Source: an uncultured Chloroflexia bacterium (GTDB taxonomy: Bacteria; Chloroflexota; Limnocylindria; Limnocylindrales; CSP1-4). From it: 64,000 nucleotides of DNA. Location of the stretch: the NCBI GenBank assembly GCA_963752475.1, contig CAVVYR010000029.1:96001-160000 (forward strand), written 5' to 3'. Below are positions 1 to 18,747 of this stretch, one piece after another (within the stretch, counting starts at the first letter, position 1; each line of letters starts with the position of its first letter). A program made the translations under genes and the position numbers. The notes beneath the pieces are model-generated. The model was not told where the DNA came from and did no database searches. It saw only the letters and a list, made by a program, of their open reading frames with translations.

Positions 1-470
1 AGGAAGCGCGGCGTCTCGACGGGGTTTAGCATCTCCGCCATGAGGCGCACCCCACCCTCGGCGAAGCGGTCAGCAGCGAAGGCCAGCTGCTCAACCAGAC
101 AGTCGTATTGGGCGGACTCGAGCTCCGCGTCAATGCGCTCTCCGGCGAGCGCATTGACCCTGGGCGTGCCCAGGCGTTCGGCGATCACCACGGCCGCTTC
201 GACGCCGTCGCGGAACTCGTCCCGCCGTCGTGGGTCGCCTGCGAATCCGCGCTCCCCCGCTGCGAAGTCGCCCATGGGCAGGTTGAACAGGTCGAGCGTG
301 AGCCCACGACGCTCGAGAGCTCGCGCCAGATCGTCGAGCTCGACGCTGTAGGGATCGAGGAGCTCGATGGTCCGGAAACCCGCCTCGACAGCGCCATCGA
401 GAGCAGCGGCGAGCGGTCGTCCCGGGAAATGGAACGTGACGTTGAGCGAGCACCGAAGGGGCTCAGACAT
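1..470 (-). CDS. Hydroxypyruvate isomerase family TIM-barrel isomerase (partial, runs off the left edge)
   Basis: Not in the ORF track because it has no stop in the window. Hand translation from ATG 470: MSEPLRCSLNVTFHFPGRPLAAALDGAVEAGFRTIELLDPY...LFNLPMGDFAAGERGFAGDPRRRDEFRDGVEAA...VNALAG...AEMLNPVETP, matching Hyi motifs (AGF..vE, FN.P.GD...GERG, E.LN). The start overlaps the P450 stop. Confidence 0.85.
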   Translation of the reverse strand, partial: MSEPLRCSLNVTFHFPGRPLAAALDGAVEAGFRTIELLDPYSVELDDLARALERRGLTLDLFNLPMGDFAAGERGFAGDPRRRDEFRDGVEAAVVIAERLGTPRVNALAGERIDAELESAQYDCLVEQLAFAADRFAEGGVRLMAEMLNPVETPRF

Positions 471-1701
471 CGAACGCGACCGGTAGCGACTCGAGGCCAC
501 GATGGGTGATGCTGGGAGTCCAATCCACGTCATCGGGGGTGAGCTGGAGCTGCGGCAACGACAGCAGTGCCGGGAACGCGATCATGGCCTCCAGTCGCGA
601 CAGCGGAGCCCCTACGCAGAAGTGGACACCCAGGCCGAAGGCGACGTGTCGATTGGGCTTGCGCTCCATGCGGAAGTCGTCCGGCGCGTCGAACAGCCTG
701 GGGTCGCGGTTGGCCGCGCCCAGCATCACGTACAGCAGCTGGCCTTCGCGCAGTCGCTGTCCGTGAAGCTCCGTATCCCCTGCGACGCGACGCCATCCCC
801 GCTGGATGGGGCTCTCGTAGCGGAGCATCTCCTCGATGGCTGAGGACAGCAAGGCCTCATCCGCCCCCTGCAGGCGTCGCAGGTCATCGGGCCTGCGCAG
901 GAGGGTGAGCATGCCGTTGGCGATCAGGTTTCGGGTAGTCTCGTGTCCGGCGATCATGAGCGTCGTGCACATCGAGATGAGTTCGGGCTCGTCAAGCCGG
1001 TCGCCGGCCTCTTCAGCTTCCACGAGGGCGGTGATGAGGTCGTCGCCCGGATGCGCCTTGCGCTCGCGACAGAGGTCGCGGAAGTAGTCCTCCATAGCCA
1101 CGATCGACTCGGCGGAGCGCACGAGATGGTCGTCCACCGCAGCCTTGCCGGAGCGCTGGATGCCGACGACACCATCGGAGAGGTCGATGAGCAGGTCGCG
1201 GTCAGCAATCGGAACACCCATCAGCTCGGCGATGACGATGGCCGGCAGCGGGTAGGCGAACTCTCGCTGGAGATCGGCGCTGCCACGATCCCGGAACTCG
1301 GCGATGAGACCTTCGATGATGGCGGCGATGCGGTCACGTGAGCCTTCGACGACGCGCGGTGTGAAAGCCTTGTTGATGAGGGGCCGCAAACGCGTGTGCG
1401 CGGGAGGGTCGGATTGCAGCATGCCCGAGGCATAGTGGCGTCGCAGCGGCTCGACATAGGGAGCCGCTGCTACTGGCAGCTGATCGAGGTAGGCGCTGAA
1501 ACGACCGGCATTCGAGAAGCGCTGCGGTTCCTTCAGGATGGCCACCACATCCTCGTGGCGCGTGACGATCCAGACACCCCAAGCCTCACTCCAGTACACG
1601 GGTGTCGCCTCGCGGATCTCAGCGAGCGCTGGGTAGGGGTCCTGGAAGTAGGCCGGATCCGTCAGGAGCCTGTCGAAGGCACCCGCGTCCATCGGTTCCA
1701 T
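463..1701 (-). CDS. Cytochrome P450 (paralogue A)
   Basis: SDPPAHTRLR, I-helix AGHETT, EMLR (ExxR), heme motif FGLGVHFCVG. Start uncertain: 1701 or 1692 preferred, ORF open to 1776. Confidence 0.95.
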   Translation of the reverse strand: MEPMDAGAFDRLLTDPAYFQDPYPALAEIREATPVYWSEAWGVWIVTRHEDVVAILKEPQRFSNAGRFSAYLDQLPVAAAPYVEPLRRHYASGMLQSDPPAHTRLRPLINKAFTPRVVEGSRDRIAAIIEGLIAEFRDRGSADLQREFAYPLPAIVIAELMGVPIADRDLLIDLSDGVVGIQRSGKAAVDDHLVRSAESIVAMEDYFRDLCRERKAHPGDDLITALVEAEEAGDRLDEPELISMCTTLMIAGHETTRNLIANGMLTLLRRPDDLRRLQGADEALLSSAIEEMLRYESPIQRGWRRVAGDTELHGQRLREGQLLYVMLGAANRDPRLFDAPDDFRMERKPNRHVAFGLGVHFCVGAPLSRLEAMIAFPALLSLPQLQLTPDDVDWTPSITHRGLESLPVAFDV

Positions 1702-1756
1702 GATCACACCCGAACCGGTTGGCGGGTCGGGGGCATCGCTGAAGCCTGGGGCAACG

Positions 1757-2536
1757 TCATGAGTCGCGGTACCCATGGCTCTCCGGGCCTCTGAAGTCGA
1801 AGGATGTCGAAAGGCCCGCGTCGACCGTTACGACGGCGCCGGTGATGCCTGAGGACTCGTCGCAGGCGAGGAACCAGGCCGTACTCGCGACCTCGTCGGC
1901 AGACAGGATACGACCAAGCGGATTGCGCTCCGCTCGTTCCTCGATCCATGCGTCGGGATCATCGGCGGTCCCCATGGCACGCCGAAACGCCGGCGTGTCT
2001 GTGGTGCCGGGGGCCACGACGTTGGCCCGGATGCCGTCACGGGCGTGGTCGACGGCCAGGTTGCGGGCGAAAGCGATGAGCGTGGCCTTGGTGCAGGCGT
2101 AGGCGATGAGCCCTTGTTCGGCCAACCAGCCATCGACCGACGAGACCACGACGATCGCGCCGCCGCCACCCGTGATCATGTCAGGCAGACACGATTTGGC
2201 GCCCAGGACTGCACCGAAGAAGTTGCCCTCGAAGAGGGCCCTCCATTGGTCCAGCTCCAGCGACACGACGGTACCGACCATGGGTCGCGCGGCATTGAGC
2301 ACGAGCGTGGTCGGCGAGATGCCCAGGCCGCGATAGGTGTCTGTGACCTGCGCCCACGCAGCCGGATCTGCGACGTCACCGACGACCGGATGGAAGTTGA
2401 GGTGCGAGGCGATCGGCTCATCAGGTGGTGAGGTCGAGATGCCGACGACGGTCACGCCCTCGGACAGGAAGCGTCTGGCGCAGGCCTCTCCGATGCCCTT
2501 GGACGAGCCAGTGATGACTGCGAGTCGTGGTTCCAT
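1757..2536 (-). CDS. SDR family NAD(P)-dependent oxidoreductase
   Basis: TGSSKGIG, LNAA, SS, YACTK (YxxxK), NVVAPG, ITG..v.vDAG. ATG 2536 chosen; ORF open to 2569. Confidence 0.93.
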   Translation of the reverse strand: MEPRLAVITGSSKGIGEACARRFLSEGVTVVGISTSPPDEPIASHLNFHPVVGDVADPAAWAQVTDTYRGLGISPTTLVLNAARPMVGTVVSLELDQWRALFEGNFFGAVLGAKSCLPDMITGGGGAIVVVSSVDGWLAEQGLIAYACTKATLIAFARNLAVDHARDGIRANVVAPGTTDTPAFRRAMGTADDPDAWIEERAERNPLGRILSADEVASTAWFLACDESSGITGAVVTVDAGLSTSFDFRGPESHGYRDS

Positions 2537-2565
2537 GGACGGTGCCTCGAGTCGATGCAAGACGA

Positions 2566-2653
2566 CCAAGGACGAAGTGGCCGGAGGATGACGCCAGTTC
2601 GTCCTTGGCCCGGATGTGGCTGACGATGGCTTCGCACGAAGCCATCGTCAGCC
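2566..2653 (-). terminator. Two tandem stem-loops after the solute-binding-protein gene (mRNA stabiliser or partial terminator)
   Basis: GGCTGACGATGGCTTCG-CA-CGAAGCCATCGTCAGCC (2618-2653, perfect 17-bp inverted repeat) and CCAAGGACGAA...TTCGTCCTTGG (2566-2608). No U-tract. Confidence 0.6.
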
Positions 2654-2664
2654 TTGGGTCGTGG

Positions 2665-3627
2665 TTAGTAGGCCGGCTCGTACTCGGACATGTTGTCCGG
2701 GGTGATGACCGGCGAGTCGATCGGCGTGCGGTCGGGAATCTCCTCGCCCGCGAGCACCTTCAGCAGGGTATCCACGGCCAGGGTGCCGTCGATGACCGGC
2801 GACTGGTAGACCGTGGCTGCCATGGCGTTCTCACCCATCAGGTTGAAGCCATCGACGTTGCCGCCGACACCGACGAGGATGACGTCCGAGGCGTCGGCCT
2901 GGGCCAGACCTTCGGCCACGCCCGCGGCCATGGTGTCGTCCTCGGCATAGATCATGTCGAGGTCATCGCCGTGCTTGGTGACGAGGTCGCGGGCGACCTC
3001 GAGAGATCGCTGCTGCGACCAGTCGCCGGGCTGCTGGTCGATGATCATCACCTGGTCGGGACACATCTCGGCGATGCGGTTGACGTAGCCATCGGTCCGC
3101 TCGATCGTTGCCGAGTAGCCGAGAGCACCGGTCACGATGGCGACATTGCCGCCGTCCGGCAACAGCGTCTCGCAGGTGTAGTCAGCGAGGATCTGGGCCT
3201 GCAGGGTGTAGTCCGGGCCGGTGAAGCCGGCGGTCAGTTCCTGGAGGCTGGCGTCCACGCCGGAGTTGACGGCAAGGACGGGCACGCCCGCGTCAGAGGC
3301 TTCCTGCAGCACCGGGCCGATGCCTAGGGCATCTACAGCGATGAGCAGGATGGCGTCGACCGGCTTGGCCAGGCAGTCGCGGAACTGGTCGACCTGCGCC
3401 TGCAGATCGCCCTCGGCGGAGAGCACGGTCACATCGATGCCGTTCTCAGCGCCATAGTCCCTGATCTGCGCGTTGATCTGTGATGAATAGGGGGTATCGG
3501 CAGCGGGTGCCAGCAGGCACGCGCTCGAGCTCATCTCGTCCTGCGCGGCCACCGGGATGGCGAATGCCGTAGCAGCGATGGCCAGGCTTGCCGCCATCGT
3601 GACGAGCTTCAGACCGGTTCGGTTCAT
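2665..3627 (-). CDS. Sugar ABC transporter substrate-binding protein (RbsB-like)
   Basis: Signal peptide ending AAQD; A.gD...Q...; R.dGY; dW; aeDDtMA.G; tvYQsP. SD AAGGAG upstream. Confidence 0.93.
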   Translation of the reverse strand: MNRTGLKLVTMAASLAIAATAFAIPVAAQDEMSSSACLLAPAADTPYSSQINAQIRDYGAENGIDVTVLSAEGDLQAQVDQFRDCLAKPVDAILLIAVDALGIGPVLQEASDAGVPVLAVNSGVDASLQELTAGFTGPDYTLQAQILADYTCETLLPDGGNVAIVTGALGYSATIERTDGYVNRIAEMCPDQVMIIDQQPGDWSQQRSLEVARDLVTKHGDDLDMIYAEDDTMAAGVAEGLAQADASDVILVGVGGNVDGFNLMGENAMAATVYQSPVIDGTLAVDTLLKVLAGEEIPDRTPIDSPVITPDNMSEYEPAY

Positions 3628-3745
3628 ATCAGGATCTCCTTCTTCTGCCCCTTGTGAACGGTGCTCGCGACTCCTCCGATCACGAGCTGGTGAGCTTCGT
3701 CTTCCGGGTCAGTAGTCCTCCTTGCTCGACCGTGATATCGCCGGC

Positions 3746-4759
3746 TCACGCATCTCGCGTCGATCCGAGCTGCGTGGCGGTGACGAGGCGCGAACGCCAC
3801 GAGGTGTAGACAGCGTCGATGAGCACCACGATGACCAGGATCACACCCAGGACCAGGTTCTGGACGTAGATCTCGAGGCCTGCGAGGTTCATGCCCGTCT
3901 TGATGAGGGCCAGGAAGAGCACGCCCATGAGGGTCTTCATCATGGAACCCGAGCCACCCGTCAGGACCGTCCCGCCGATGACTACAGCGGCGATGACCGG
4001 CAGCACGCTGAAGGTGCCCACGATGGGCGACCCGGTATTCAGACTCAGCGCTAGCACTACGCCGGCAAGACCGGCCATCAGGCCGCTGAACACGAAGGCT
4101 CCGAACGTGTAGCGCGATACGTTCACGCCAGACAGCCGCGCCGCCTCGGCGTTGCCACCGATGGCGTAGATGTTGCGGCCCTGGCGGACGCGCAAGAGCA
4201 CGAAGTGGGCAATGAGCAATGCGCCGATGAAGATGACGATGCGCGGCGTGATGAACGTGCCCAGCTGCTCCCACAAGGGGCCGAAGATGGCGCGGTCGAT
4301 GGAGGCGCCGAAGAACGGGTCGATGCCACGAACCGGTGCGGCTCCGGTCAGGGTCATCGCGACCCCGCGTATCCCGATCATGGCCGCAAGGGTCACGATG
4401 AACGAGTTGACACCAGCCTTGACGACGAGGAACCCGTTCAAGGCCCCCACCAGTCCGCCGGCGGCGACCCCGACCACCGCGGCCGGGTACGGGCCCAGTG
4501 GTTCCTGCAGGCCGATGGCCACGACACCAGCGAGAGCGAGGACCGCTCCCACCGACAGGTCCAATTGTCCTGACAGGATGACCACGGTCACGCCGATGGC
4601 CATGAGGCCGTCGATGGACGCTCGCACGAGCAGGTTCTTGAGCGCTGGCGCACTGCGCAGGTCCGGCACGAACAGCAGGAACAGGAGCAGCGCGATGGCC
4701 AGGATGAAGTAGATGCGGTTGTCCGCCAGGAAGCGGATCGTCCGAGGGTTCACACTCAC
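3746..4759 (-). CDS. Sugar ABC transporter permease (RbsC-like)
   Basis: Multiple TM segments; GQLDLSVG, FIVTL, GRNIYAIGGNAEAARLSGV, IAAVVIGGT.L.GGSG. Confidence 0.95.
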   Translation of the reverse strand: MSVNPRTIRFLADNRIYFILAIALLLFLLFVPDLRSAPALKNLLVRASIDGLMAIGVTVVILSGQLDLSVGAVLALAGVVAIGLQEPLGPYPAAVVGVAAGGLVGALNGFLVVKAGVNSFIVTLAAMIGIRGVAMTLTGAAPVRGIDPFFGASIDRAIFGPLWEQLGTFITPRIVIFIGALLIAHFVLLRVRQGRNIYAIGGNAEAARLSGVNVSRYTFGAFVFSGLMAGLAGVVLALSLNTGSPIVGTFSVLPVIAAVVIGGTVLTGGSGSMMKTLMGVLFLALIKTGMNLAGLEIYVQNLVLGVILVIVVLIDAVYTSWRSRLVTATQLGSTRDA

Positions 4760-5745
4760 CGGCGCAACCTCAGGTCAAGCCAGACAGCGACGACGATGAG
4801 GGCGCCCTTCACGATGGTCTGCGACTCGGCCGGGACACCGAGCAGGATCATGAGGTTGTTCAGGACACCGACGATCAGGATGCCCATGATCGTGCGTGGC
4901 ACCGTGCCGGCGCCACCGAAGATGCTGTTGCCGCCGATGGCGACTGCGGCGATGGCGTTGAACTCCATGCCCACACCAGCGTTGGCGCGCGCGCTCTCAA
5001 GCTCGGAAGCCAGCAGGACACCGCCGATGGCCGTGAACGTGGCGCAGATGACGAAGACGCTGATCATCACGCGCTTGACCGGAACACCCGCCGCACGCGC
5101 CGCGTTGTAGTTGCCACCGGTCGGGTAGATCCACCGACCCAGGACGGTGTTGCTCAGCGTCAAGTGGGCGATGAGCGCCACGATGGCCAGGATCAGCAAC
5201 GTGTTGGGGACGAAGGGGATGAGCTCGCCCTGGGCGATGAGTGCGTAGGTCTCACTCTCGTTATAGACGATCCGCCCTTCGACGAAGAGCTGTGCGATGC
5301 CCAGCGCGGCGAACTGGGTTCCCAGCGTCGTGATCACGGGGTTCGTCCGGAAGACACCGATGAGGATGCCGTTGAAGAGCCCGATGACGACGCCCGCACC
5401 GATGCCCGCGATCAGCCCGCCGACGGGGCCGAGGACCGGCACCACCGCGAGAGCGATGATGCCCGAACCAGCCATGGTGGCGGGGATGGACAGGTCAACG
5501 AAGCCACCGCTGGTCGTCACCATGAGCATCCCGAAGGCCGCGAATCCCGTCCACGCTACCGAGCGCAGGATGTTCTCGAAGTTGTCGATGGACAGGAAGT
5601 CGCTCGAGACCACGGCGCCAGCGGCGATGAGCGCGCCGAAGACGAGCAGGATGGCGTAGTTGGAGACGAGAGTCCGCAACCGAGCCGAGCCCGTCACTGG
5701 GACCGTCGTGGTCGACTCCACGCCGGGCTGTGAAGACAGGATCAT
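4756..5745 (-). CDS. Sugar ABC transporter permease (RbsC-like)
   Basis: VDLS, GRWIYPTGGNYNAARAAGV, IAAVAIGGNSIFGGAG; 4-bp overlaps with both neighbours. Confidence 0.95.
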   Translation of the reverse strand: MILSSQPGVESTTTVPVTGSARLRTLVSNYAILLVFGALIAAGAVVSSDFLSIDNFENILRSVAWTGFAAFGMLMVTTSGGFVDLSIPATMAGSGIIALAVVPVLGPVGGLIAGIGAGVVIGLFNGILIGVFRTNPVITTLGTQFAALGIAQLFVEGRIVYNESETYALIAQGELIPFVPNTLLILAIVALIAHLTLSNTVLGRWIYPTGGNYNAARAAGVPVKRVMISVFVICATFTAIGGVLLASELESARANAGVGMEFNAIAAVAIGGNSIFGGAGTVPRTIMGILIVGVLNNLMILLGVPAESQTIVKGALIVVAVWLDLRLRR

Positions 5746-7319
5746 GGTGTAGCCGGCCCGTCGACAGCGGTCTGGCCGGTCGCGGCCATCATGATTCGCT
5801 CTTCGGTAGCGTCTTCGCGACTGAACTCCGCGCCGATGCGACCCTCATGGATGACGAGGATGCGATCGCTCGCAGAGAGCACCTCGACGAGTTCAGACGA
5901 GATCATGACGATCGCGATGCCGTGGCTGGCAAGCTCACCCATGAGCGCATGGATCTCTGCCTTGGCGCCAACGTCCACGCCCCTCGTGGGCTCATCAAGG
6001 AAGAGGACGCGAGGGGTGGCTGCCGTCCAGCGACCCATGACCACCTTCTGCTGGTTGCCACCGGAGAACGTGGCCACCATTCGCTCAGGGTCGGGTGGCG
6101 TCAGGCTGAAGCGCTCCATCATCGTCTCGACCGTGGGCAGTTCTGCGCGCCTCGTGATCCAGCCGGTACGCGACAACTCGGAGAGGATGCTGATGACGGT
6201 GTTGCTGCGGACGCTCAAGCCAAGGATCAGTCCTTCGCGTTTGCGGTCCTCAGGGACGTATCCCATCTTGGCCTTGATGGCGTCTCGCGGGCTACCGATC
6301 TTGACCAGCTCGCCATCGATATGGACCTCGCCGCGATCGTATGGATCGAGTCCGAAGATGGAACGGGCGATCTCGGTGCGTCCGGCACCCACGAGCCCCG
6401 CCAGGCCCACGATCTCGCCGGCCCGGACCTCAAAGGAGATGTCCGCAAAGACGCCCGTGCGAGCGAAGTCTTCGACCTGCAGGACGACATCGCCGACCTC
6501 GACCGTACGCTTGGGGAAGAGGTCGCCCACATCGCGACCGACCATCATCCTGACGATATCGCCAGGGGTGAGTTCGCCGATGGGCTGAGAGTCGACCAGG
6601 GCTCCGTCCCGTAGCACGGTCACGCGGTCGGCGATCTCCATCACCTCCTTGAGCCGATGCGAGATGAAGATCACGGCGATGCCCTCGGCACGCAGCTTGC
6701 GCAAGGTCTCGAAGAGGATCTGCGTCTCGTGCTCGGTCAGCGCCGAGGTTGGCTCGTCCAGCACGAGGATCCGTGGGTCCTGACTGTAGACCTTGGCGAT
6801 CTCCACCATCTGGGACTGCCCCACCGACAGATCGCGAATCAGCGTGTCGGCATCGACCGGTGCCGAGAGGCTGGTGAGCAACGCGTTCGCATCTTCTCGA
6901 AGCCTGCGGCGATCGATGATGCCGAAACGCCCCGTGGGCTGCCGGTCCAGGTAGATGTTCTCGGCAACCGAGAGATCTGGTACCAGGATCAGCTCCTGGT
7001 AGACCATCCCGATACCACGAGCCTGGGCCTCGTGGGGCGTCGCCAGCGCGACCTCGACCCCGTCGATACGGATCGTTCCGGCGTCGGCGGTGTAGGCGCC
7101 GGAGAGGATCTTCATCAGCGTCGACTTGCCGGCGCCGTTCTCACCCACGATGGCGTGGATCTCACCCGGCAGGCACGTCAGGCTGACCCCGTCGAGCGCT
7201 TGCACGCCGGGAAAGCCCTTGCTGATGCCCAGCATCTCAAGGACGGGCGGGCTCTCGCTGGCAGAAGAGGGTCCCCCGGCCGCAGGCGAGGCCGTCTCCT
7301 CGGGGAGGCCTGTATGCAT
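5742..7319 (-). CDS. Sugar ABC transporter ATP-binding protein (RbsA-like, two NBDs)
   Basis: GENGAGKST, LDEPT, ISH, second domain FSGGNQQK and DEPTRGVDVGAK. ATG 7319 lies 7 nt after a TATGGT -10 box. Confidence 0.95.
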   Translation of the reverse strand: MHTGLPEETASPAAGGPSSASESPPVLEMLGISKGFPGVQALDGVSLTCLPGEIHAIVGENGAGKSTLMKILSGAYTADAGTIRIDGVEVALATPHEAQARGIGMVYQELILVPDLSVAENIYLDRQPTGRFGIIDRRRLREDANALLTSLSAPVDADTLIRDLSVGQSQMVEIAKVYSQDPRILVLDEPTSALTEHETQILFETLRKLRAEGIAVIFISHRLKEVMEIADRVTVLRDGALVDSQPIGELTPGDIVRMMVGRDVGDLFPKRTVEVGDVVLQVEDFARTGVFADISFEVRAGEIVGLAGLVGAGRTEIARSIFGLDPYDRGEVHIDGELVKIGSPRDAIKAKMGYVPEDRKREGLILGLSVRSNTVISILSELSRTGWITRRAELPTVETMMERFSLTPPDPERMVATFSGGNQQKVVMGRWTAATPRVLFLDEPTRGVDVGAKAEIHALMGELASHGIAIVMISSELVEVLSASDRILVIHEGRIGAEFSREDATEERIMMAATGQTAVDGPATP

Positions 7320-7435
7320 GCGTGCTACCATACCGGCCCGAAGCCACCCGCACAAGCCGAGCGTGCAATCGAGCCGGCCAGCCGTAGAGGGCGACCCCGC
7401 GGGCAGGGTGGCTGCTGATCCGGAGGTGGCGCGCC

Positions 7436-7750
7436 ATGCAGCACTCGCTGTTCTCGATCCGGCTGGTGCCCGGCACCGAGGAGGAGTACGACCGACGGCA
7501 CGCGCAGGTGTGGCCGGAGATGGTGGAGGCCATGCACGAGTGCGGCATCACCAACTCCACGGGGTTCCGGCGCGGGACTGAGGTCTTCTACTATGCCGAG
7601 TGTGACCCCGACCCCGTGACCTGCTACGGCCGACTGGAGCCGATGGAGGTAAACCAGCGGTGGTCGGAGCACTTCAAGGGCATCGTCAGCGACCGGCTCA
7701 CCGAGGACGGACACTTCCCGTTCCTGCGAGTCGTCTCTCACGTCGACTGA
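7436..7750 (+). CDS. L-rhamnose mutarotase (RhaM/YiiL) family protein
   Basis: EEYDRRHAQVWPEM...GI.N...NQRW...F; SD GGAGG upstream. Confidence 0.85.
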   Translation: MQHSLFSIRLVPGTEEEYDRRHAQVWPEMVEAMHECGITNSTGFRRGTEVFYYAECDPDPVTCYGRLEPMEVNQRWSEHFKGIVSDRLTEDGHFPFLRVVSHVD

Positions 7751-7807
7751 ACCCTCCCCCTGCCCGGCGGGCTTGCCCGGGTCTGCCACTGATCCGGCCG
7801 GCAACGA

Positions 7808-8917
7808 CTAGAACGCCACCACCGTGCGGATGACATGGCCACGCTCGACGTCCGCGAAGGCGGCATCGATGTCATCGAGCGCGACCTCGCGATCGACCAG
7901 CACATCGAGCAGCAGGTGCCCATCGAGATAGGCACGCGCCACCGCCGGGAAATCGCGCTGGGGATGGGCGCCGCCGTAGGCCAGTCGACTGATCGTCTTG
8001 TTGCCCATCATCGTGCCGAAGCGCACTGGCAAGTCATCATCGAGCGGGATCTTCCCGAGCATCGTCAACTCACCTCCAGCTCGTACCAGCTCGAAGGCGG
8101 TGCGCATGGCGGTCGCGTTGCCGGCGGCCTCGAAGACGTGGTCGGCGCCGCGTCCACCGGTCAAGGCTGCGACGACCGACAACGGGTCCTCGTGGCTGAC
8201 ATCGACGCCCACATCCGCACCCAGTCGGCCAGCCAGCTCGAGCCGTTGAGGCGACCGATCGATGGCCACGATCCTTGAGGCGCCCGCCAGGCGGGCGCCC
8301 ATGACCACCGACAGGCCCACGATGCCACAGCCCACGACCGCCACGACGGCACCCGGCGTGCTCGTAGCCGGCGACCGGAGGGCAGGGATCAACCCGGTCG
8401 TGATACCGCAGCCGATGGCAGCGCCGATCCCGAAGGGGAGGTCATTCGGAACCCGCACGGCCGCAGCCTCCGTGATCAACGCATGGTCGGCGTGTGAGCC
8501 CATGAACATGAACTGCTGCACGAGCCCCGAGGTGTCGCTGAGCGGTGTGCGGCCGTCCGGCAGGGTGCCGGCGCCCGCGGCTCGTCCACAGCGCTCACAG
8601 AGCAGTGGCTGACCGCGACTGCAGTAGAAGCACAGCCCGCAGGCGGGGTTCCAGGAGCACACGACGTGGTCGCCCGGAGCGACGTTCTCGACCGTCTCCC
8701 CCACCGCCTCCACGACGCCTGCGCCCTCGTGGCCGAGAACCATGGGTAGCGGCATGGCGATCGCGCCACGCATGACCTCGAGGTCCGTGTGACATAGTCC
8801 AGCTGCGCCCATCCGGACGAGCACATCGCGCGGCCCGGGGTCAGCCAGTTCGAGCCGCTCCACGCTGAGCGGATCGTTGACGGCCCGCAGCACCGCAGCG
8901 GAGACCTGCATCGTCAT
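7808..8917 (-). CDS. Zn-dependent alcohol dehydrogenase (class III/formaldehyde dehydrogenase-like MDR)
   Basis: GLCHTD, GHEGAG, structural Zn C-x2-C-x2-C-x7-C, IGCG, GCGIVG followed by Asp (NAD preference). Confidence 0.93.
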   Translation of the reverse strand: MTMQVSAAVLRAVNDPLSVERLELADPGPRDVLVRMGAAGLCHTDLEVMRGAIAMPLPMVLGHEGAGVVEAVGETVENVAPGDHVVCSWNPACGLCFYCSRGQPLLCERCGRAAGAGTLPDGRTPLSDTSGLVQQFMFMGSHADHALITEAAAVRVPNDLPFGIGAAIGCGITTGLIPALRSPATSTPGAVVAVVGCGIVGLSVVMGARLAGASRIVAIDRSPQRLELAGRLGADVGVDVSHEDPLSVVAALTGGRGADHVFEAAGNATAMRTAFELVRAGGELTMLGKIPLDDDLPVRFGTMMGNKTISRLAYGGAHPQRDFPAVARAYLDGHLLLDVLVDREVALDDIDAAFADVERGHVIRTVVAF

Positions 8918-8942
8918 GAAACGCTCCCCTTCAGGTTGGTGG

Positions 8943-9635
8943 TCAAGCGCGCTCTCCTTGCATCATGGGACCGTTCGTCAACGCCCCCCACGCCGGCCAT
9001 CGGCGCACCAGCTCCGCCATCGCCTCGTACCCCTCGTCGGTCGGGTGGATGCCATCGCCGCCTCGCGTGGCCCGCAGCCAGCGTTCGTCGGCACTGAGTG
9101 GATCGAAGACCGACAGGTACGCCACACCGACATCGCGCGCCACCGATCCGAGCCGAACGTCGAGCGCACGGATGTCGTCGTTGGCCGTGATCTGGAGCAC
9201 GCCGGGGACGAGCTGTGGTCCGGGTCGTGAGTCATCGATGGGTGCCGGCCCGATGAATAGCGTGGGCTGCAGGGTGTGGGCCTCCGTGAGCAGCGTACGT
9301 GTGTTCGCCAGGGTCACCTCGGCCTCGACGCGGCGCTCTGCACGCCCATCCTGGTACGTCCGCACGGTGCAGTCGTTGAGCCCATACTGGAAGACGATGC
9401 CCCCGGGGAAGAGCTGTGGCAGCCGTGCGTCCGTCTCTGCGTGCCACCGGCGAGCTACATCCACGGACGTGTCGCCTCGCACGCCGAGATCATAGATGGT
9501 GAGGTCGGCGCCCTCCGCCAAGGCCTCGGCCGCGATGCGTCCTGGCCATCCCAGGGCCCGCTGATCGCCGGTCCCAGCGGCGATGGAGTCACCGACCACG
9601 CAGACTCGCAGCGAGCGAGATGTGGCCTCAGCCAC
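8943..9635 (-). CDS. SGNH/GDSL esterase
   Basis: GDSI, LGVRG, GLND, DGIHP. Confidence 0.92.
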   Translation of the reverse strand: MAEATSRSLRVCVVGDSIAAGTGDQRALGWPGRIAAEALAEGADLTIYDLGVRGDTSVDVARRWHAETDARLPQLFPGGIVFQYGLNDCTVRTYQDGRAERRVEAEVTLANTRTLLTEAHTLQPTLFIGPAPIDDSRPGPQLVPGVLQITANDDIRALDVRLGSVARDVGVAYLSVFDPLSADERWLRATRGGDGIHPTDEGYEAMAELVRRWPAWGALTNGPMMQGERA

Positions 9636-9674
9636 TGGCCGAAGACCAGCCGAGAGGTGGCCTCTTTGTTGGTG

Positions 9675-9688
9675 TGTATGCTCGCATC
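9675..9688. promoter_or_regulatory. Putative operator TGTAT-N4-GCATC, copy 1
   Basis: TGTATGCTCGCATC in the divergent SGNH/URO-D promoter region; the same pattern occurs at 10983 and partially at 7311. Confidence 0.5.
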
Positions 9689-9758
9689 CTAGGTACGATA
9701 CACTGGTCCCACAAGGGTCGACTCAGCACCCGACAGGACATCCAGGGAGGGTGGAGCG

Positions 9759-10907
9759 ATGGGGGCAATGACCTCTCGGGAGCGAGCGCTCGCGGCGCTG
9801 AACCACAAGGAACCGGACCGGGTCCCCATCGACCTCGGCTCGCATGGAGCCAGCCTTATCCGCCACGAGCCGTACGATGGTGCGCGCGACCTGTGGGGCC
9901 TCCCGGAAGAGGATGACAAGGGCACCTTCACGGCCTCTGGCCTGATCGTCCCGGGCGAGCGCTTCCGCCAGCGGGTCGGCGCCGACTTCGTCGATATCGG
10001 CCTCGTCTCCCTCGAGGCTTGGGAGCGCAACGACGATGGATCGTTCCTCGACGAGTGGGGTGTGACCTGGATGCGCTCGGGAGACGGCGAGCCGGCGGCG
10101 TTGGCCGGTCCGCTGGAGCGCGACGACATCACGGCCAGGGACATCCTCGATTGGGATGGTTACCCCACCGCCGACGATCCACGACGCTATCCCGGCATGG
10201 CCGAGCGTGTGGCCAGGATCCGGGCGGAGACCGACTACGCCATCGTCTTCGACTTCCATTACGGCGTCGTGCGCGAATGCCAGCGCCTCCGTGGGTTCGC
10301 ACCGTGGCTGATGGACCTCATCGGCGATCCCGAGCGGGCCGAGGCCATCATGACCAAGGTCGTGGACACGATCTCTGCCATCGCCGAGAACGCACTCGAT
10401 GAAGTAGGCGACGAGATCGACGTCTTCTGGTTCGCGGACGACATGGGCTTCCAGGACCGGCCCTACATGAAGCCCGAGATGTATCGCGAGCTGGTCAAGC
10501 CCTACCACGCCCGCTTCATCGAGCGCGTTCGCGCCAAGACCGAGGCCGTCATCATGATGCACAACGACGGCGCGATCCACGAGATGCTGGGTGACTACAT
10601 CGACATTGGCGTGCAGGCGTTGAACCCGGTGCAGGTCTCCGCCGACGGCATGGGTGACACTGCTGCACTCAAGGCCGAGTTCGGAGACGACCTCGTCTTC
10701 TGGGGCGCCATCGACACGCAGCACGTCCTGCCCTTCGGGTCACCGCAAGAAGTGCGGGACGAGGTCAAGCGCCGCATCGAGACGCTCGGCCCTGGGGGCG
10801 GCTACGTCCTCGCTCCCGGTCACAACATCCAGTCGGAGGTGCCCCCGGAGAACGTCGTCGCCATGTTCGACGCGGCCCTCGAGCTGGGCGGCTACCCACG
10901 CTCCTAA
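9759..10907 (+). CDS. Uroporphyrinogen decarboxylase (URO-D/MtaA-CmuA superfamily) protein
   Basis: TSRER..AALNHKEPDRVP, DEWG, DDMGFQ, MHNDG, LNPVQ, WGAIDTQ, GGGYVLAPGHNIQ.EVPPEN. Confidence 0.9.
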   Translation: MGAMTSRERALAALNHKEPDRVPIDLGSHGASLIRHEPYDGARDLWGLPEEDDKGTFTASGLIVPGERFRQRVGADFVDIGLVSLEAWERNDDGSFLDEWGVTWMRSGDGEPAALAGPLERDDITARDILDWDGYPTADDPRRYPGMAERVARIRAETDYAIVFDFHYGVVRECQRLRGFAPWLMDLIGDPERAEAIMTKVVDTISAIAENALDEVGDEIDVFWFADDMGFQDRPYMKPEMYRELVKPYHARFIERVRAKTEAVIMMHNDGAIHEMLGDYIDIGVQALNPVQVSADGMGDTAALKAEFGDDLVFWGAIDTQHVLPFGSPQEVRDEVKRRIETLGPGGGYVLAPGHNIQSEVPPENVVAMFDAALELGGYPRS

Positions 10908-10982
10908 GGTCCGAGACATGGCCATCGCGTGCCCGGCGGCCGGTGCCGGCGAAGTCCGTGCTGGGCGGTAGTGGAACTGGTC

Positions 10983-10996
10983 TGTATATTGGCATC
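10983..10996. promoter_or_regulatory. Putative operator TGTAT-N4-GCATC, copy 2, overlapping a TATATT -10 box
   Basis: TGTATATTGGCATC upstream of P450 B. Confidence 0.5.
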
Positions 10997-11062
10997 AACA
11001 CTGCGGCGTCCGGGCGCGACGGCCGCTGACGACCTATGGCGAAGCCAGGCGAGGCGAGAAGG

Positions 11063-12307
11063 ATGGCCGAGCAGCCGAATGACACGCTGCTGACACACCC
11101 GAGCTTCAGCGCGAACCCCTTTCCAGCCTATCGAGAGCTGCGTGAGCGTGCCCCTGTGTACCGGAGCGCCGCCTGGGACGCCTGGGTCATGACCGGGTAC
11201 GACGACATCGTCTCGGCACTACGCGACCACGAGCGGTTCTCGAGCCGCGGGCGCCTGGTCGAGATGATCGACGCCTTGCCGGAGGAAGCGCAGGGGCAAG
11301 CAGGACCGCTGCGGAACCACTTCTCGACATCGGGACTGATCCACTCGGATCCCCCCGACCACACCCGAATGCGTGGGCTCATCAAGCAGGCCTTCTCACC
11401 ACGCGTGATAGCGACCATCGAGCCGCGCATCGAGCGCATCATCGAGCGCTTGCTGGACCGGGTCGACGCGGCCCAGGGCTTCGACGTCGTCGAGCGCCTG
11501 GCCTATCCGCTCCCGGCTATCGTCATCGCCGAGCTGCTGGGCGCGCTGCCCGAGGATCGAGACCGCTTCAAGGGCTGGTCCGACGGCATCGTCGCGTTCC
11601 AAGGACAGGGTCGAGCGATCGCGGACGCCGTGCCCATGTCAGCCGAGGCCATCACTGAGATGCGGGCCTATATCGGCGAACTGATGGCCGCGCGTCGCCG
11701 GGACCACCACGACGATCTGCTCGCCGGCCTCGTCGATGTGGAACAGGCCGGCGTCGAACTCAGCGAGGACGAGATCTACTCCACGTGCGTGACGTTCCTC
11801 ATCGGCGGCCACGAGACCACCACCAGCCTTATCGCCAACTGTCTGTATACCCTGCTTCGGCGCCCCGAACAGCTCGAGCAGGCACGGACGGATCCGGTTG
11901 CCCTCGCCGGCGCCCTCGAGGAGAGCCTGCGCTTCGACAGTCCGATCCAACGGACGTTCCGCCGTGTCACACGGGACACGGAGGTCGGGGGACAGGAACT
12001 GCGTGAAGGTCAGATCGTCATCCAACTGCTGGGTGCCGCCAACCGCGACCCAGCTCACTTCGCCGATCCCGAGACGTTCGACCTCGCGCGCAAGCCGAAC
12101 CGCCATATCGCGTTCGGTAGTGGCGTTCATTTCTGTATCGGTGCCCCGCTGGCACGACTGGAGGCCCGGCTTGCGCTGCGTGCCATCCTCGAACGGTGGC
12201 CCGATCTGGAGCTAGCCGTCGAAGAGATCGAGTGGCAGAGCGAGAAGGCGCTGTTCCGATGCGTCCGCAGCCTGCCGGTCAGGTCCCGCAGGGAGAGCGG
12301 CCTTTGA
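11063..12307 (+). CDS. Cytochrome P450 (paralogue B)
   Basis: SDPPDHTR, GGHETT, ESLR, FGSGVHFCIG; many blocks identical to the 463-1701 P450. Alternative start 11036. Confidence 0.95.
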   Translation: MAEQPNDTLLTHPSFSANPFPAYRELRERAPVYRSAAWDAWVMTGYDDIVSALRDHERFSSRGRLVEMIDALPEEAQGQAGPLRNHFSTSGLIHSDPPDHTRMRGLIKQAFSPRVIATIEPRIERIIERLLDRVDAAQGFDVVERLAYPLPAIVIAELLGALPEDRDRFKGWSDGIVAFQGQGRAIADAVPMSAEAITEMRAYIGELMAARRRDHHDDLLAGLVDVEQAGVELSEDEIYSTCVTFLIGGHETTTSLIANCLYTLLRRPEQLEQARTDPVALAGALEESLRFDSPIQRTFRRVTRDTEVGGQELREGQIVIQLLGAANRDPAHFADPETFDLARKPNRHIAFGSGVHFCIGAPLARLEARLALRAILERWPDLELAVEEIEWQSEKALFRCVRSLPVRSRRESGL

Positions 12308-15300
12308 GGTCACGCATCCGCAGGTCGATCGCCTTCGCGCTCGTGCTGTCGCTGGCCACAGGGGGCGCTGTCGTCTCAGCTGACGCCGACGAGGCCACGG
12401 AGGCCGGCCTGGACGTTCCGACCTTCGTCGACGAGACCCTGGCCTCAGGGATCGACCACGTGAACAGCTACGTGGCCACGCCAGAGAGCCCTGACGGGGG
12501 CTGGGAGTTCATCGTCGGCGGCGGCCTGGCCGTCCTCGACTGCGACCGTGACGACCTGCCCGACCTGTACCTTGCCGGCGGCAGCAGCCCGGCGAGCCTC
12601 TATCGCAACGTGAGCGACCTGGGCGGGCCACTCAAGTTCAAGCGTCTGAACTCCGACGAGACGGACCTCATCCATGTCACCGGCGCCTATCCCGTCGACA
12701 TCGACAGCGACGATCTGCTCGACCTGGTCGTGCTCCGCCGCGGCCCCAACGCGGTGCTCCGCGGGCTGGGCGACTGCCGTTTCGAGCCGGCTAACTCGCG
12801 GCTCGGTGTGGATGGCGGCGACGACTGGACGACCGCTTTCAGTGCCAAGTGGGAAGGCGAAGCTGCTTTGCCGACGTTGGCATTCGGCAACTACCAAGCG
12901 CTCGATGCGGCCGGTGAGTTGGTCCCGGGCACGTGCGCCGATCAACAGCTCTACCGCCCGCGACCCGGCGCCGTGCGCTACGGGCCACCGGTCCCGCTGT
13001 CACCCGGCTGGTGCACGCTTTCGATGCTCTTCAGCGACTGGGACCGGTCGGGGCGTCGCGACTTGCGCGTGAGCAACGACCGTCAGTACTACGTCTCAGC
13101 GGGCGAGGAGCAACTGTGGCAGATGGACGACGAACCCCGGCTGTACACCGACGCCGACGGCTGGGAGCGAACCCTGATCTTCGGCATGGGCATCGCCAGC
13201 GCCGACATCACTCGCGACGGCTACCCCGAGGTCTTCCTGACCACGATGAGCCACAACAAGCTGCTGACCCTGTCTGACGGGCCTGAGCGGCCAAGCTACG
13301 ACGACGTGGCTCGAGAGCTGGGTGCATCCACGGGCCGCCCGGTCACCGGCGACGACACGCGACCGTCGACGGCGTGGCACCCCGAGTTCGCAGATGTCAA
13401 CAACGACGGACGCCTCGATCTCTACGTCTCGAAGGGCAACCTCGATGCGCTACCTGACCAGGCCAACCACGACCCCAGCAGCTTGATGCTGCAGCGAACT
13501 GACGGGACCTTCGTGGAGATGGCACCTGCCGCCGGCCTCGCCAATGACGCCCGCGCGCGCGGCGCCGCCCTGGTGGACCTCAACCTCGACGGCCTGCTCG
13601 ACCTCGTCGAGGTCAACCTGGGCGATGAGGCAGAGGTCTGGCGCAACGCCGGCGTCGGGACCGCCACCGAGCCTGCACCGATGGGGCACTGGCTGGCCGT
13701 CGAGTTGCACGAGGACGGGCCGAACGCCGACGCGATCGGCGCCTGGATCGAGATCAAAGCCGAAGGCGGGATCCAGCGGCGCGAGGTCACCGTGGGCGGC
13801 GGCCACATCTCGGGCCAGCTGGGCCCGACCCACTTCGGCCTGGGCCCGGCCGAGCAGGCCGAGGTGCGCGTGACCTGGCCCGACGGCGAGGTCGGACCAT
13901 GGACCCCGGTCAGCGCCGACCAGCGCATCCGCATCGAGCGTGGCGGGATGAGCCCGGTGGCCCTGACGGTCGCGACCGAGATGACCGGTGCGCTACCCCT
14001 GGTGCGCGAGAGCGAAGCCGGGCCCGAGCTGCCGCCGGTCCCGTCGGTGGACCCGTCCACCTGCGTGCCGAGCGCTGACCGCGAGCACTCGGTCGCCCGC
14101 CTCTGGGACGAGGCCCTGCTCGACGCCATCCGCCGTGACTTCCCGGCCCCCACCGTGCACGCGCGCAACCTCTACCACGCGTCGGCCGCGATGTGGGATG
14201 CCTGGGCCGCCTACGACTCGACCGCCGATGGTGTCTTCTATCGGCGGCAAGGCCACCGCCGACGACGTCGCGGCCGCGCGCGACGAGGCCGTCAGCTACG
14301 CCGCCTACCGCGTCCTGTCGCACCGCTACCGCGACAGCGCCGGAGGTGCGCAGTCCCTGCGCCGGTTCGACCAGCTCATGGCCGAGCTCTGCTACCCGTG
14401 GGAGATCGAGGCCGCCGACGATGCGACCCCGGCCACGCTGGGCAACCGCATCGCGGCCACGGTCATCGAGGCCACCATGGACGACGGCGCGCTGGAGCAG
14501 CAGGGCTACACCACGCGCGACTACGTCGCGGTGAACGAGCCGATGATCGTGCAGGAGCCGGGCACGGTCATGACCGACCCCAACCGCTGGCAGCCGCTGG
14601 CGCTCGAGATCAGCTACACCCAGAACGGCCAGCTGCTGCCGATCGGGCCGCAGGAGTTCATCGGGCCGCACTGGGGCGAGGTCACCTCCTTCGCCCTGCC
14701 CGAGCCGCTCGAGCACGGCATGCCCATCGACCCCGGCGGCCCGCCCCATCTCGGTGACCCCGCCACCGATGCCGAGTTCAAGGCCAAGGCCGTGGAGGTC
14801 GTCGCGTACAGCGCGCTGCTGGACCCGCGCGACGGCGTGACCGTCGACATCGGCCCGGCCACCTGGGGCAACGCGCCGCTGGGGACGAACGATCGGGCCG
14901 GCCACGCGTTCAACCCCTGGACCAGCCTGCCGTATGCGCCGGTCGAGGTACCGCGCGCGGACTTCGGGCGCGTGCTGGCCGAGTTCTGGGCCGACGGTCC
15001 CGACTCGGAGACCCCGCCGGGCCACTGGAACACGCTCGCCAACAGCGTCGTCGACCACCCCGCGTTCGAACGCCGCATCGCCGGCCGCGGCCCCGTGCTC
15101 GACCCGCTCGAATGGGATGTGAAGCTGTACCTCGCGCTCAACGGCGCGGTGCACGATGCGGCCGTGGCCGCCTGGGGCGCCAAGGGCCACTACGACTACG
15201 TGCGGCCGATCAGCATGATCCGCTACATGGGCGGCCTCGGCCAGTCGAGCGACCCGGGGCTGCCCGCGTACCACCCCGACGGGCTGCCGCTCATCGAGGG

Positions 15301-15826
15301 CCAGGTCGAGCTCATCACCGCGGCCTCGGCCGCCGCCGGCGAGCGCCACGAGCACCTCGATGACTTCGTCGGGGAGATCGCGGTGCGGGCCTGGAGCGGG
15401 AACCCCCGCGAGACCGAGTCGGAGCTCGGCGGGGTCGACTGGATCCGGGCGGTCGAGTGGGTGCCCTACCAGCTCTCGACCTTCGTGACGCCCAGCTTCG
15501 CAGGCTACGTCAGCGGCCACTCCACCTTCAGCCGAGCGGCCGCGGAGGTGCTCACCGAGATGACCGGCTCGGCGTACTTCCCCGGTGGGCTCGGCACCTG
15601 GACGGTGCCGGCGGGTTCGCTCGAGTTCGAGCTCGGGCCCAGCGTCGACGTGCCGCTGGCTTGGGCCACGTACTACGACGCGGCCGATCAGGCCGGGCTC
15701 TCACGGCTCTACGGCGGCATCCACGTCGAGGCCGACGACCTGCGCGGTCGGGTCATGGGCGCGCAGTGCGGCCGGGACGCGTGGGCCCTGGCGCAGACCT
15801 ACTGGGACGGGACGGCGCGCGGCTAG
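12304..15826 (+). CDS. Secreted CRTAC1-like (FG-GAP + ASPIC/UnbV)-vanadium-dependent haloperoxidase fusion; apparent +1 frameshift near 14239
   Basis: TTG start overlaps the P450 stop; signal peptide; FG-GAP repeats (DxDxDGxxDL); ASPIC motifs NADAIGA and HFGLG. Haloperoxidase N-terminus (VARLWDE.LLDAIRRD.PAPTVHARNL) is in frame 12196 and continues in frame 13988 with vanadate ligands WGAKGHYDYVRP, PSFAGYVSGHS, SRLYGGIH. Confidence 0.85.
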
Positions 15827-18687: not shown

Positions 18688-18747
18688 CGGCGGCAAGTCT
18701 AGGGCGTCCTGCGGCGACCGACCGGCATCACCGATACGATGGGGTCC

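Follow-up and report, generated by a model that had tools for sequence, protein, structure and literature searches.

Here we describe a set of genes at the start of a 64,000-nucleotide stretch of DNA, called the window throughout (positions 96001-160000 of contig C29), from the metagenome-assembled genome (MAG) of a Limnocylindrales-like soil bacterium of the Chloroflexota, an assembly of 4.25 Mb in 38 contigs that is 89% complete. Two paralogous cytochrome P450s, P450 A and P450 B, are encoded there beside a ribose-type ATP-binding cassette (ABC) importer and a protein of the UroD superfamily. At the level of gene context the case for modified-sugar catabolism is well supported, and we read the stretch, with a confidence that stands at about even, as a single regulon through which a modified monosaccharide, most probably an O-methylated one, is taken up and broken down. 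Of the readings considered, demethylation is the best; two enzyme families with that chemistry to their name now stand behind it, not one, and the UroD-superfamily genes that are paired with the P450s lend the methyl-group theme independent support. Sugars with O-methyl groups occur commonly in the cell walls of plants, in mosses and algae, in bacterial envelopes and in RNA, examples being 4-O-methylglucuronate, 2-O-methylfucose, 2-O-methylxylose, 3-O-methylrhamnose and 2'-O-methylribose, and to our knowledge no enzyme other than the marine CYP236A is known that opens this ether when the sugar is free. If the reading is right, it identifies enzymes for a step that is missing from the account of soil carbon turnover, gives a function to part of a very large unnamed UroD-like family, and adds new sugar-active P450s for biocatalysis.

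Genes were called from a listing of open reading frames (ORFs) and from Pfam and NCBIfam profile scans, the NCBIfam cut-offs being used for equivalogs. All the genes named in a preliminary description of this DNA were recovered in this way, at or near the same positions. The genes and sites of the locus, in window coordinates, are these:

3-533, minus strand: Hyi/OtnI-like TIM barrel of the xylose-isomerase fold (PF01261), cut by the window start and 285 aa when whole.
463-1776, minus strand: cytochrome P450 A (PF00067, 92 bits).
1757-2569, minus strand: short-chain dehydrogenase/reductase (SDR) directly upstream of P450 A (PF13561 and PF00106).
2665-3627, minus strand: CUT2 (ribose-type) substrate-binding protein with a signal peptide (PF13407, 159 bits).
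3746-4759, minus strand: ABC permease 1 (PF02653).
4756-5745, minus strand: ABC permease 2 (PF02653).
5742-7355, minus strand: two-domain sugar ABC ATPase (PF00005 twice).
7311-7317, plus strand: TGTATGC motif in the promoter region from which the RhaM gene and the ABC operon diverge, in the same place in 6/6 related loci.
7436-7750, plus strand: RhaM-family mutarotase, 104 aa (PF05336, 60 bits, cut-off 23.4).
7808-8917, minus strand: Zn-dependent alcohol dehydrogenase (ADH), class-III-like (PF08240 and PF00107).
8943-9635, minus strand: SGNH/GDSL esterase (PF13472, with GDS and DGIHP motifs), upstream of the ADH in the same unit.
9675-9681, plus strand: TGTATGC motif in the promoter region from which the SGNH and URO-D1 genes diverge, in 3/6 related loci.
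9759-10907, plus strand: UroD1, of the URO-D family and with an MtaA-like fold (PF01208, 102 bits, cut-off 23.9), 128 bp upstream of P450 B.
11036-12307, plus strand: cytochrome P450 B (PF00067, 126 bits).

The evidence for a role in sugar use begins with the company that relatives of the two P450s keep. The neighbourhood sample comprised 79 loci around relatives of P450 A, taken from contigs of one genome per species, to which three same-genus paralogues and 20 Chloroflexota loci chosen by P450 similarity alone were added. A P450 tree of 100 rows, obtained by a quick tree search with SH-aLRT support, contains a group that we call clade S (SH-aLRT 97), whose 41 rows include both P450s of the window, four near-copies and 31 of the foreign loci that we examined. 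Context was judged from the Pfam lists of 55 foreign loci, and the labels (carbohydrate-linked, ambiguous or not), which are our own reading of those lists, cover these 55 and not the remaining 39 tree rows. Inside clade S, 18 loci were carbohydrate-linked, seven ambiguous and six not; outside it the 24 examined loci gave none, three and 21, so that all 18 carbohydrate-linked loci among the 55 fall inside the clade. The preliminary description had staked its proposal on orthologous P450s being linked to sugar genes elsewhere as well, and in 18 of the 31 clade S loci they are.

This association spans three phyla. Clade S contexts include GH27, GH2, GH127, GH29, GH43-CBM6, GH51, CE15, GH140-like and GH38 genes, together with UxuA, MR_MLE, LacI and ABC systems of both the CUT1 and CUT2 types, and those of the Acidobacteriota are dominated by glycoside hydrolases. 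Locus L018 holds a CUT2 ABC system, an SDR, the P450, an SGNH esterase, a Zn-ADH and a TIM barrel; L049 and L053 each hold an SDR, the P450, GH27 and GH2; L051 has GH127, an SDR, the P450, a GH29 fucosidase and LacI, and L052 a URO-D gene, a nucleoside-hydrolase-like gene, the P450, GH43-CBM6 and an FG-GAP/ASPIC gene. In L043 the P450 stands with CE15, GH51, GH2 and a symporter, in L048 with an SDR, UxuA, a lactonase and GH38, and in L103 with a GFO/IDH/MocA gene and a CUT1 ABC system. The clade is also marked in its residues: nine positions set it apart from the other rows, eight of the nine being polar or charged, and Thr at I-helix position 4 before AGxET is found in 39 of the 41 clade S rows, where 52 of the 59 rows outside have Leu. 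Five of the nine (H114, S122, Q207, T272 and R326) lie in what we take to be the substrate-recognition regions (B'-C, F, I-helix and beta1-4) of the P450 A model, parts of the fold that are generally in contact with the substrate. The locus itself is conserved nearly gene for gene in six related MAGs, with P450 A at 75-90% identity; these are near kin, so conservation there says little about function. As a separate observation, two loci of the same genus (L092 in G015 and L093 in G007) carry clade S P450s in a setting of another kind, divergent from a ketopantoate-hydroxymethyltransferase-like gene and beside a family III CoA-transferase.

The hallmarks of a P450 are the Cys heme ligand in FxxGxHxCxG, the ExxR motif and the acid-alcohol pair of the I-helix. 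Both proteins keep the heme loop, ExxR and the I-helix pair intact (FGLGVHFCVG, EEMLR and AGHETT in P450 A), and their PF00067 scores, 92 bits for A and 126 bits for B against a cut-off of 22.8, place them in the superfamily. They are 48% identical to each other over 402 residues. The start of P450 A is probably M26, near 1701, since homologues are about 410 aa long and cover 92-94% of the query. The closest sequences to either P450 in the Protein Data Bank (PDB) are PksS, CYP107P2, PikC, BioI, CYP109 and CYP267, with E-values of about 1e-80, and a Foldseek search with the AlphaFold2 model of P450 A (pLDDT 91.9) gives the same relatives at TM-scores of 0.84-0.87 and 33-40% identity. Under the rules of CYP nomenclature membership of a family calls for more than 40% identity; by sequence, the two look to be of CYP107/CYP109 type. 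They have the size and the class I architecture of PksS, PikC, BioI, CYP109A2/E1 and CYP107P2, but those enzymes oxidise macrolides, polyketides, acyl-ACP and steroids, whereas clade S has its polar signature residues and its sugar loci.

Such kinship might mean that the P450s are ordinary CYP107-like oxidisers of lipids, terpenoids or secondary metabolites, or BioI-like pimeloyl-ACP synthases, and that their sugar neighbours are there by chance, an explanation that we regard as highly improbable. It can draw on the nearest solved relatives, on the automatic name 'pimeloyl-ACP synthase' that some database entries bear (the 120 best database relatives of the P450s have generic or automatic names only), and on the six of 31 clade S loci that have no sugar gene. 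However, the locus contains no polyketide synthase, non-ribosomal peptide synthetase, glycosyltransferase, terpene or biotin genes, the link with sugar loci extends over three phyla and to all four P450s of the source genome, and the P450 units share a promoter motif with the ABC operon. A BioI-like or secondary-metabolite role was accordingly rejected, there being no such genes nearby.

Kinship with the marine sugar P450 fared no better. The structures 6G5O and 6G5Q, which are those of CYP236A2 according to the available text of PMC6292453, are absent from the best 60 PDB matches of either P450 (the weakest listed have E-values of about 1e-55 and 1e-59) and are likewise missing from the Foldseek list for the P450 A model. 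By this indirect test P450 A and P450 B are not members of CYP236A. A metagenome scan with the P450 of L018 returned merely four distant loci, at 31-32% identity.

The second enzyme family comes in through its pairing with the first. The source genome has four P450 genes, and all four lie in sugar-ABC loci that hold a PF01208 gene, the gap between P450 and UroD genes being 35 bp on contig C27, 128 bp for P450 B, 2.05 kb for P450 A and 7.8 kb on contig C32. An SDR gene directly precedes the P450 at C27 and at P450 A, and opens the C32 operon four genes upstream of the P450. On C27 the operon runs from a CUT1 binding protein through two permeases, a Peripla_BP_4 protein, the SDR, the P450 and the UroD gene to a KDPG aldolase and a PfkB kinase; on C32 the order is SDR, ferredoxin, ferredoxin reductase, P450, aldo-keto reductase, lactonase-like gene, CUT2 ABC system and UroD. 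Because the P450s of C27 and C32 fall far outside clade S, the pairing is not tied to one P450 lineage, and the UroD gene, at first taken for a bystander of the locus, is probably central to it. A locus of a related genome (L127, on contig C33 of G461) has two tandem RhaM-family genes beside a C27-type P450, an aldo-keto reductase, a Zn-ADH, an SDR and an enolase-superfamily dehydratase, and resembles a deoxy-sugar locus.

Pairs were also found further afield. In a survey of 60 other genomes of the family (loci L123-L127 being read from all ORFs of at least 200 aa), a P450 is present in 30 and a PF01208 match in 34, and a P450-UroD pair less than about 150 bp apart, with the ATPase of a sugar-type ABC system no more than about 4 kb away, occurs in four of the 30 P450-bearing genomes, in three genera. 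The pair of URO-D and P450 B is kept in G013, a related genome, and two Acidobacteriota MAGs have a P450-UroD pair too, one at L052 and the other at L038 and L039, which are one and the same MAG. At L125 the order is pterin-binding methyltransferase, corrinoid protein, SDR, UroD, P450, DUF4432 and CUT2 ABC system, apparently a full three-component corrinoid O-demethylase beside a P450. A text search of open-access papers and preprints found nothing on a terrestrial counterpart of CYP236A or on the P450-UroD pair. It is conceivable, though we put it forward tentatively and think it somewhat improbable, that soil Chloroflexota and Acidobacteriota share a widespread, undescribed SDR-P450-UroD demethylation module in sugar-import operons, in which O2-dependent and corrinoid-dependent routes act on the same substrates, whether sugars or nucleoside-derived sugars such as 2-O-methylribose, and to which the present locus would add an ADH-SGNH relay that yields formate.

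The AlphaFold2 model of UroD1 (pLDDT 92.3) has the methyl transferase MtaA (4AY7) as its best fold match, with TM-scores of 0.69/0.78 at 20% identity, and is predicted to be closer to MtaA than to the true decarboxylases; UroD2, encoded upstream of the window start, is 40% identical to it. Membership of the UroD-superfamily fold is therefore clear, and UroD1 lacks the subfamily score of MtaA/CmuA (TIGR01463, 63 bits against a cut-off of 235), the zinc motif and an adjacent corrinoid protein. A role as HemE, supplying heme to the P450s, was rejected at 32 bits against a TIGR01464 cut-off of 303; four other PF01208 genes, which score 189-205 bits over the full Pfam model, are better candidates for HemE or MtaA. 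The family is greatly expanded in the source genome, with 23 PF01208 matches in 4.25 Mb where family relatives have 0-9. Six small corrinoid proteins are encoded, two of them beside UroD genes, and a cluster at 41-58 kb of C27 has two UroD genes, a corrinoid protein, a small Rieske protein, a sugar-type binding protein and a LacI regulator. UroD1 belongs to a very large unnamed family (6902 of 8000 scored candidates at E <= 1e-20), and an Atlas look-up returned 'URO-D' clusters only.

The UroD superfamily takes in corrinoid O-, S- and halogen-demethylases, according to the available text of PMC10418091. To the three-component corrinoid O-demethylases, with an OdmB/VdmB-type methyltransferase I (MTI), a corrinoid protein and a methyltransferase II (MTII), the present system is linked by the shared superfamily, the MtaA-like fold of UroD1, the L125 set and the six corrinoid proteins. 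The known systems of that kind act on phenyl methyl ethers in strict anaerobes, as the available part of that account has it (PMC10418091). They are not known to be paired with P450s; unlike them, UroD1 and UroD2 have H-x-D-G, the locus has no corrinoid protein, and the setting is one of sugar import.

These likenesses allow a division of labour in which the UroD-like proteins are the true demethylases, served by corrinoid proteins encoded elsewhere, and the P450s, with the adjacent SDR, carry out some other oxidation of the same imported sugar or of its product, such as hydroxylation at a deoxy or C-methyl position or of a cyclitol. We consider this unlikely. In its favour, an SDR accompanies the P450 in three of the four loci of the source genome and in seven clade S loci elsewhere (L018, L048, L049, L051, L052, L053 and L088 have similar SDRs adjoining the P450), the complete corrinoid system of L125 would make a second demethylase redundant, the RhaM-family mutarotase hints at a 6-deoxy sugar, and in L054 and L103 GFO/IDH/MocA and TIM-barrel genes of inositol-pathway type adjoin clade S P450s. 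Yet in UroD1 and UroD2 the Cys ligand is missing and no corrinoid protein is encoded close by, the class-III-like ADH and a hexulose-phosphate-synthase-like gene near the locus fit the release of a one-carbon (C1) unit, and the sole carbohydrate P450 studied is a demethylase, according to the available text of PMC6292453. A search of the pinitol literature turned up no bacterial demethylase.

The transporter and its neighbours speak for a sugar. The CUT2 importer is recognisable from its Peripla_BP_4 binding protein, BPD_transp_2 permeases and duplicated ATPase in one operon, and it has the same domain families and gene set (binding protein, two permeases, fused ATPase) as RbsABC, AlsBAC and YtfQRT; unlike these, it misses every equivalog cut-off widely. 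The top NCBIfam matches of the binding protein are RbsB, AlsB and YtfQ, all far under cut-off (RbsB 97 bits against 337), and its top PDB matches are ribose-binding proteins, with E-values of about 1e-26. The ATPase scores about 560 bits with the XylG and RbsA models, below their cut-offs, and probably starts near 7250, since family matches begin at about residue 36. The SDR reaches no NCBIfam cut-off. On the opposite strand, the PF05336 score places the mutarotase in the RhaM family; the 159-aa ORF at 7325-7804 on the minus strand, also tried as a mutarotase, has no family match and is an artefact antisense to the true RhaM gene.

The minus-strand unit runs on beyond the window start, and we completed it from the DNA upstream of that point (L001). 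There it has the full Hyi-like gene, an AraR-type regulator, which joins a GntR helix-turn-helix to a LacI-type sugar-binding domain, and the second URO-D gene, UroD2. The full Hyi-like protein scores 240 bits with TIGR03234 Hyi (cut-off 353) and 212 with OtnI (cut-off 325), below what would make it a hydroxypyruvate isomerase or 2-oxo-tetronate isomerase; its top PDB matches are 3ngf and YgbM (1k77), with E-values of about 1e-41. Farther upstream lie a transaldolase-like gene, the hexulose-phosphate-synthase-like gene (117 bits, cut-off 200), a second Zn-ADH, DhaK/DhaL and an Amidohydro_2 protein, for which L-fucono-lactonase is the best match, below cut-off.

The substrates might be something other than free sugars, such as nucleosides or other small molecules that carry methyl groups or glycosides of methoxylated aromatics, with the transporter and regulator reflecting the sugar moiety only, though on the evidence we think this quite unlikely. 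Nucleoside hydrolase, PnrA-type protein, nucleoside phosphorylase, CNT, PfkB and DeoC genes stand beside P450-UroD pairs in L039, L049, L052, L124 and L126, and in L124 (G433) and L126 (G119) the ABC system that precedes the pair has a nucleoside-like binding protein of the Bmp/PnrA type. The characterised O-demethylases of the UroD superfamily, moreover, act on phenyl methyl ethers, as far as the available text of PMC10418091 goes. In the present locus, by contrast, nucleoside and aromatic-ring genes are absent and what is encoded is a CUT2 binding protein, a mutarotase and an AraR-like regulator, and the Acidobacteriota contexts of clade S mostly hold glycoside hydrolases. A gene of the purine-nucleoside-phosphorylase family also adjoins the pair of L126, which may be a route for methylated nucleosides.

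The Zn-ADH and the SGNH esterase form a minus-strand pair divergent from the plus-strand pair of URO-D1 and P450 B; no signal peptide or leader is seen in the esterase sequence. The three leading NCBIfam families of the ADH are all related to formaldehyde and all below cut-off, namely NDMA-dependent ADH (264 bits, cut-off 440), mycothiol-dependent formaldehyde dehydrogenase (TIGR03451, 253 against 513) and its glutathione-dependent counterpart (TIGR02818, 250 against 544), scores that leave it short of membership among the class III ADHs or thiol-dependent formaldehyde dehydrogenases. The order P450-SGNH-Zn-ADH recurs in L018, whose P450 is a sister of P450 A, and nowhere else in the samples beyond the near-copies. 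A general trio of P450, ADH and esterase was rejected, being absent from 20 of the 20 sampled Chloroflexota loci. The relay that we imagine for the ADH and the esterase may turn the O-hydroxymethyl (hemiacetal) intermediate of the P450 into a formate ester and hydrolyse it, so avoiding formaldehyde, and would also account for the ADH and esterase of the marine CYP236A clusters.

Those marine clusters, in Flavobacteriia of the genera Zobellia and Formosa, remain the nearest known parallel. As here, the P450 lies in a carbohydrate-use locus with a Zn-ADH and an esterase, and the chemistry proposed here is the same, hydroxylation of a methyl ether. The window ADH scores much the same with their enzymes ZoADH and FoADH (192 and 186 bits) as with class III ADHs (193 bits); ZoADH (8H2B) and FoADH (8H2A) rank 6th and 14th among its PDB matches. 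The P450, redox partners, Zn-ADH and esterase ascribed to these clusters are borne out by the available text of PMC10033563, in which the ADHs are required for growth on methyl sugar, yet have no known substrate. The differences are as clear: the marine P450 is of another family, uptake is by SusC/D and not by an ABC importer, the hosts are marine Bacteroidota and not soil Chloroflexota and Acidobacteriota, and here the P450 is accompanied by a UroD-family gene and an SDR, of which the available parts of the accounts of the marine clusters make no mention (PMC6292453, PMC10033563). Of the features of a CYP236A-type cluster, the ADH and esterase are present, the locus has no glycoside hydrolases, and the redox partners, which the marine clusters hold themselves, are on C32.

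Genome-wide scans with Fer4_15, Fer2 and Pyr_redox_2, to which the search for ferredoxin families was confined, found no P450-type ferredoxin or reductase gene in the window, in agreement with what had been noted before. The sole window match, a Pyr_redox_2 gene at 54417-55535, was rejected as a P450 reductase, being a thioredoxin reductase (TIGR01292, 392 bits, cut-off 343). The operon on C32 supplies both a Fer4_15 ferredoxin of 64 aa and an HcaD-like reductase of 397 aa next to its P450.

The units of the locus are tied together by a short motif. Besides the two divergent promoter regions listed above, TGTATRC occurs upstream of dhaK (kept in 6/6 related loci), and, in the form of the palindrome TGTATACA, just upstream of UroD2 (kept in 5/6). 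The dhaK and UroD2 sites were found after the motif had been chosen, the chance expectation in those short spacers being about 0.01. Shared with the ABC operon and present in four short intergenic regions, this short motif suggests one regulon under the AraR-like regulator, in which the SDR, P450 A and P450 B may be held in common.

We therefore picture the working of this putative O-methyl sugar pathway as follows. The CUT2 ABC system would import the sugar and the RhaM-type mutarotase equilibrate its anomers, after which the cytoplasmic P450 A and P450 B would hydroxylate the methyl ether to give the free sugar and a C1 unit, with electrons from the C32 ferredoxin and ferredoxin reductase encoded beside a third P450. 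The UroD proteins paired with the P450s would be MtaA-like methyl transferases and would take off the same methyl group, or another one, by an additional route that depends on corrinoids. The neighbouring SDR would oxidise the freed sugar, the Hyi-like isomerase, the Amidohydro_2 lactonase-like enzyme, the transaldolase-like aldolase and DhaKL would carry the carbon onward, and the class-III-like Zn-ADH and the SGNH esterase would handle the C1 product or acyl groups, all units probably being governed by the AraR-like regulator through the TGTATRC sites. As to the sugar, analogy points in more than one direction: the ribose-type binding protein and the nucleoside genes of related loci would suit 2-O-methylribose, the RhaM-type mutarotase a methylated 6-deoxyhexose, and the glycoside hydrolases of the Acidobacteriota loci the methyl sugars of plant walls.

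Several observations weigh against this picture. A P450 and a methyl transferase side by side for the same job are redundant, which the picture leaves unexplained. The zinc motif of MtaA-type enzymes is H-x-C(-G), with the Cys as a zinc ligand; UroD1 has H-N-D-G and UroD2 H-S-D-G in its place, where 14 paralogues in the genome keep H-x-C-G, both proteins score below every NCBIfam cut-off, and no B12-binding (corrinoid) gene was found on this part of C29. Among the 31 examined clade S loci six have no carbohydrate gene and seven are ambiguous, and the related genomes in the counts are not independent. The 20 sampled phylum-wide Chloroflexota loci have neither the P450-UroD pair nor the trio of P450, SGNH and Zn-ADH (0/20 for each), and the locus is without the sugar-acid dehydratase that would round off an oxidative sugar pathway. 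Since several related loci hold nucleoside genes (IU_nuc_hydro, Bmp/PnrA, PNP and CNT), the substrates may be derived from nucleosides and not be free plant sugars, and we know of no study that deals with a clade S enzyme or with a member of this branch of UroD proteins. The demethylation route for modified sugars that the preliminary description had proposed thus stands in part: it gains a carbohydrate-linked P450 clade and the pairing with the UroD superfamily, against it, the P450s are not relatives of CYP236A and the trio is rare, found beyond the near-copies in one locus only (L018).

Two peripheral genes follow P450 B:

12196-14757, plus strand: FG-GAP / UnbV_ASPIC repeat protein, 853 aa (PF13517 and PF07593), whose membership of the locus is doubtful.
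13988-15826, plus strand: DUF6851 / VCPO-like protein (PF21167 and PF22778).

The FG-GAP/ASPIC protein is conserved in G013, and a similar protein is encoded near the P450 of L052; both genes are kept in G013 and absent from most related loci, and we rejected them as core parts. Their ORFs overlap by about 770 bp within 12196-15826. The first 87 or so codons of the VCPO-like gene are in another frame than in G013 (L094, 3493-7123), where the stretch corresponding to residues 596-682 of the FG-GAP ORF joins the VCPO frame, and this comparison implies one or two frame changes at the junction, whether real or due to assembly error. After the locus, at 16373-19377, come a sulfotransferase gene and a 700-aa Kdo/WaaP-like kinase-domain/DUF4032 protein, the same pair being present in G013. 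An H+-translocating pyrophosphatase at 28055-30139 (865 bits) and a proline-racemase-family gene at 34201-35565 are ordinary genes unrelated to the locus.

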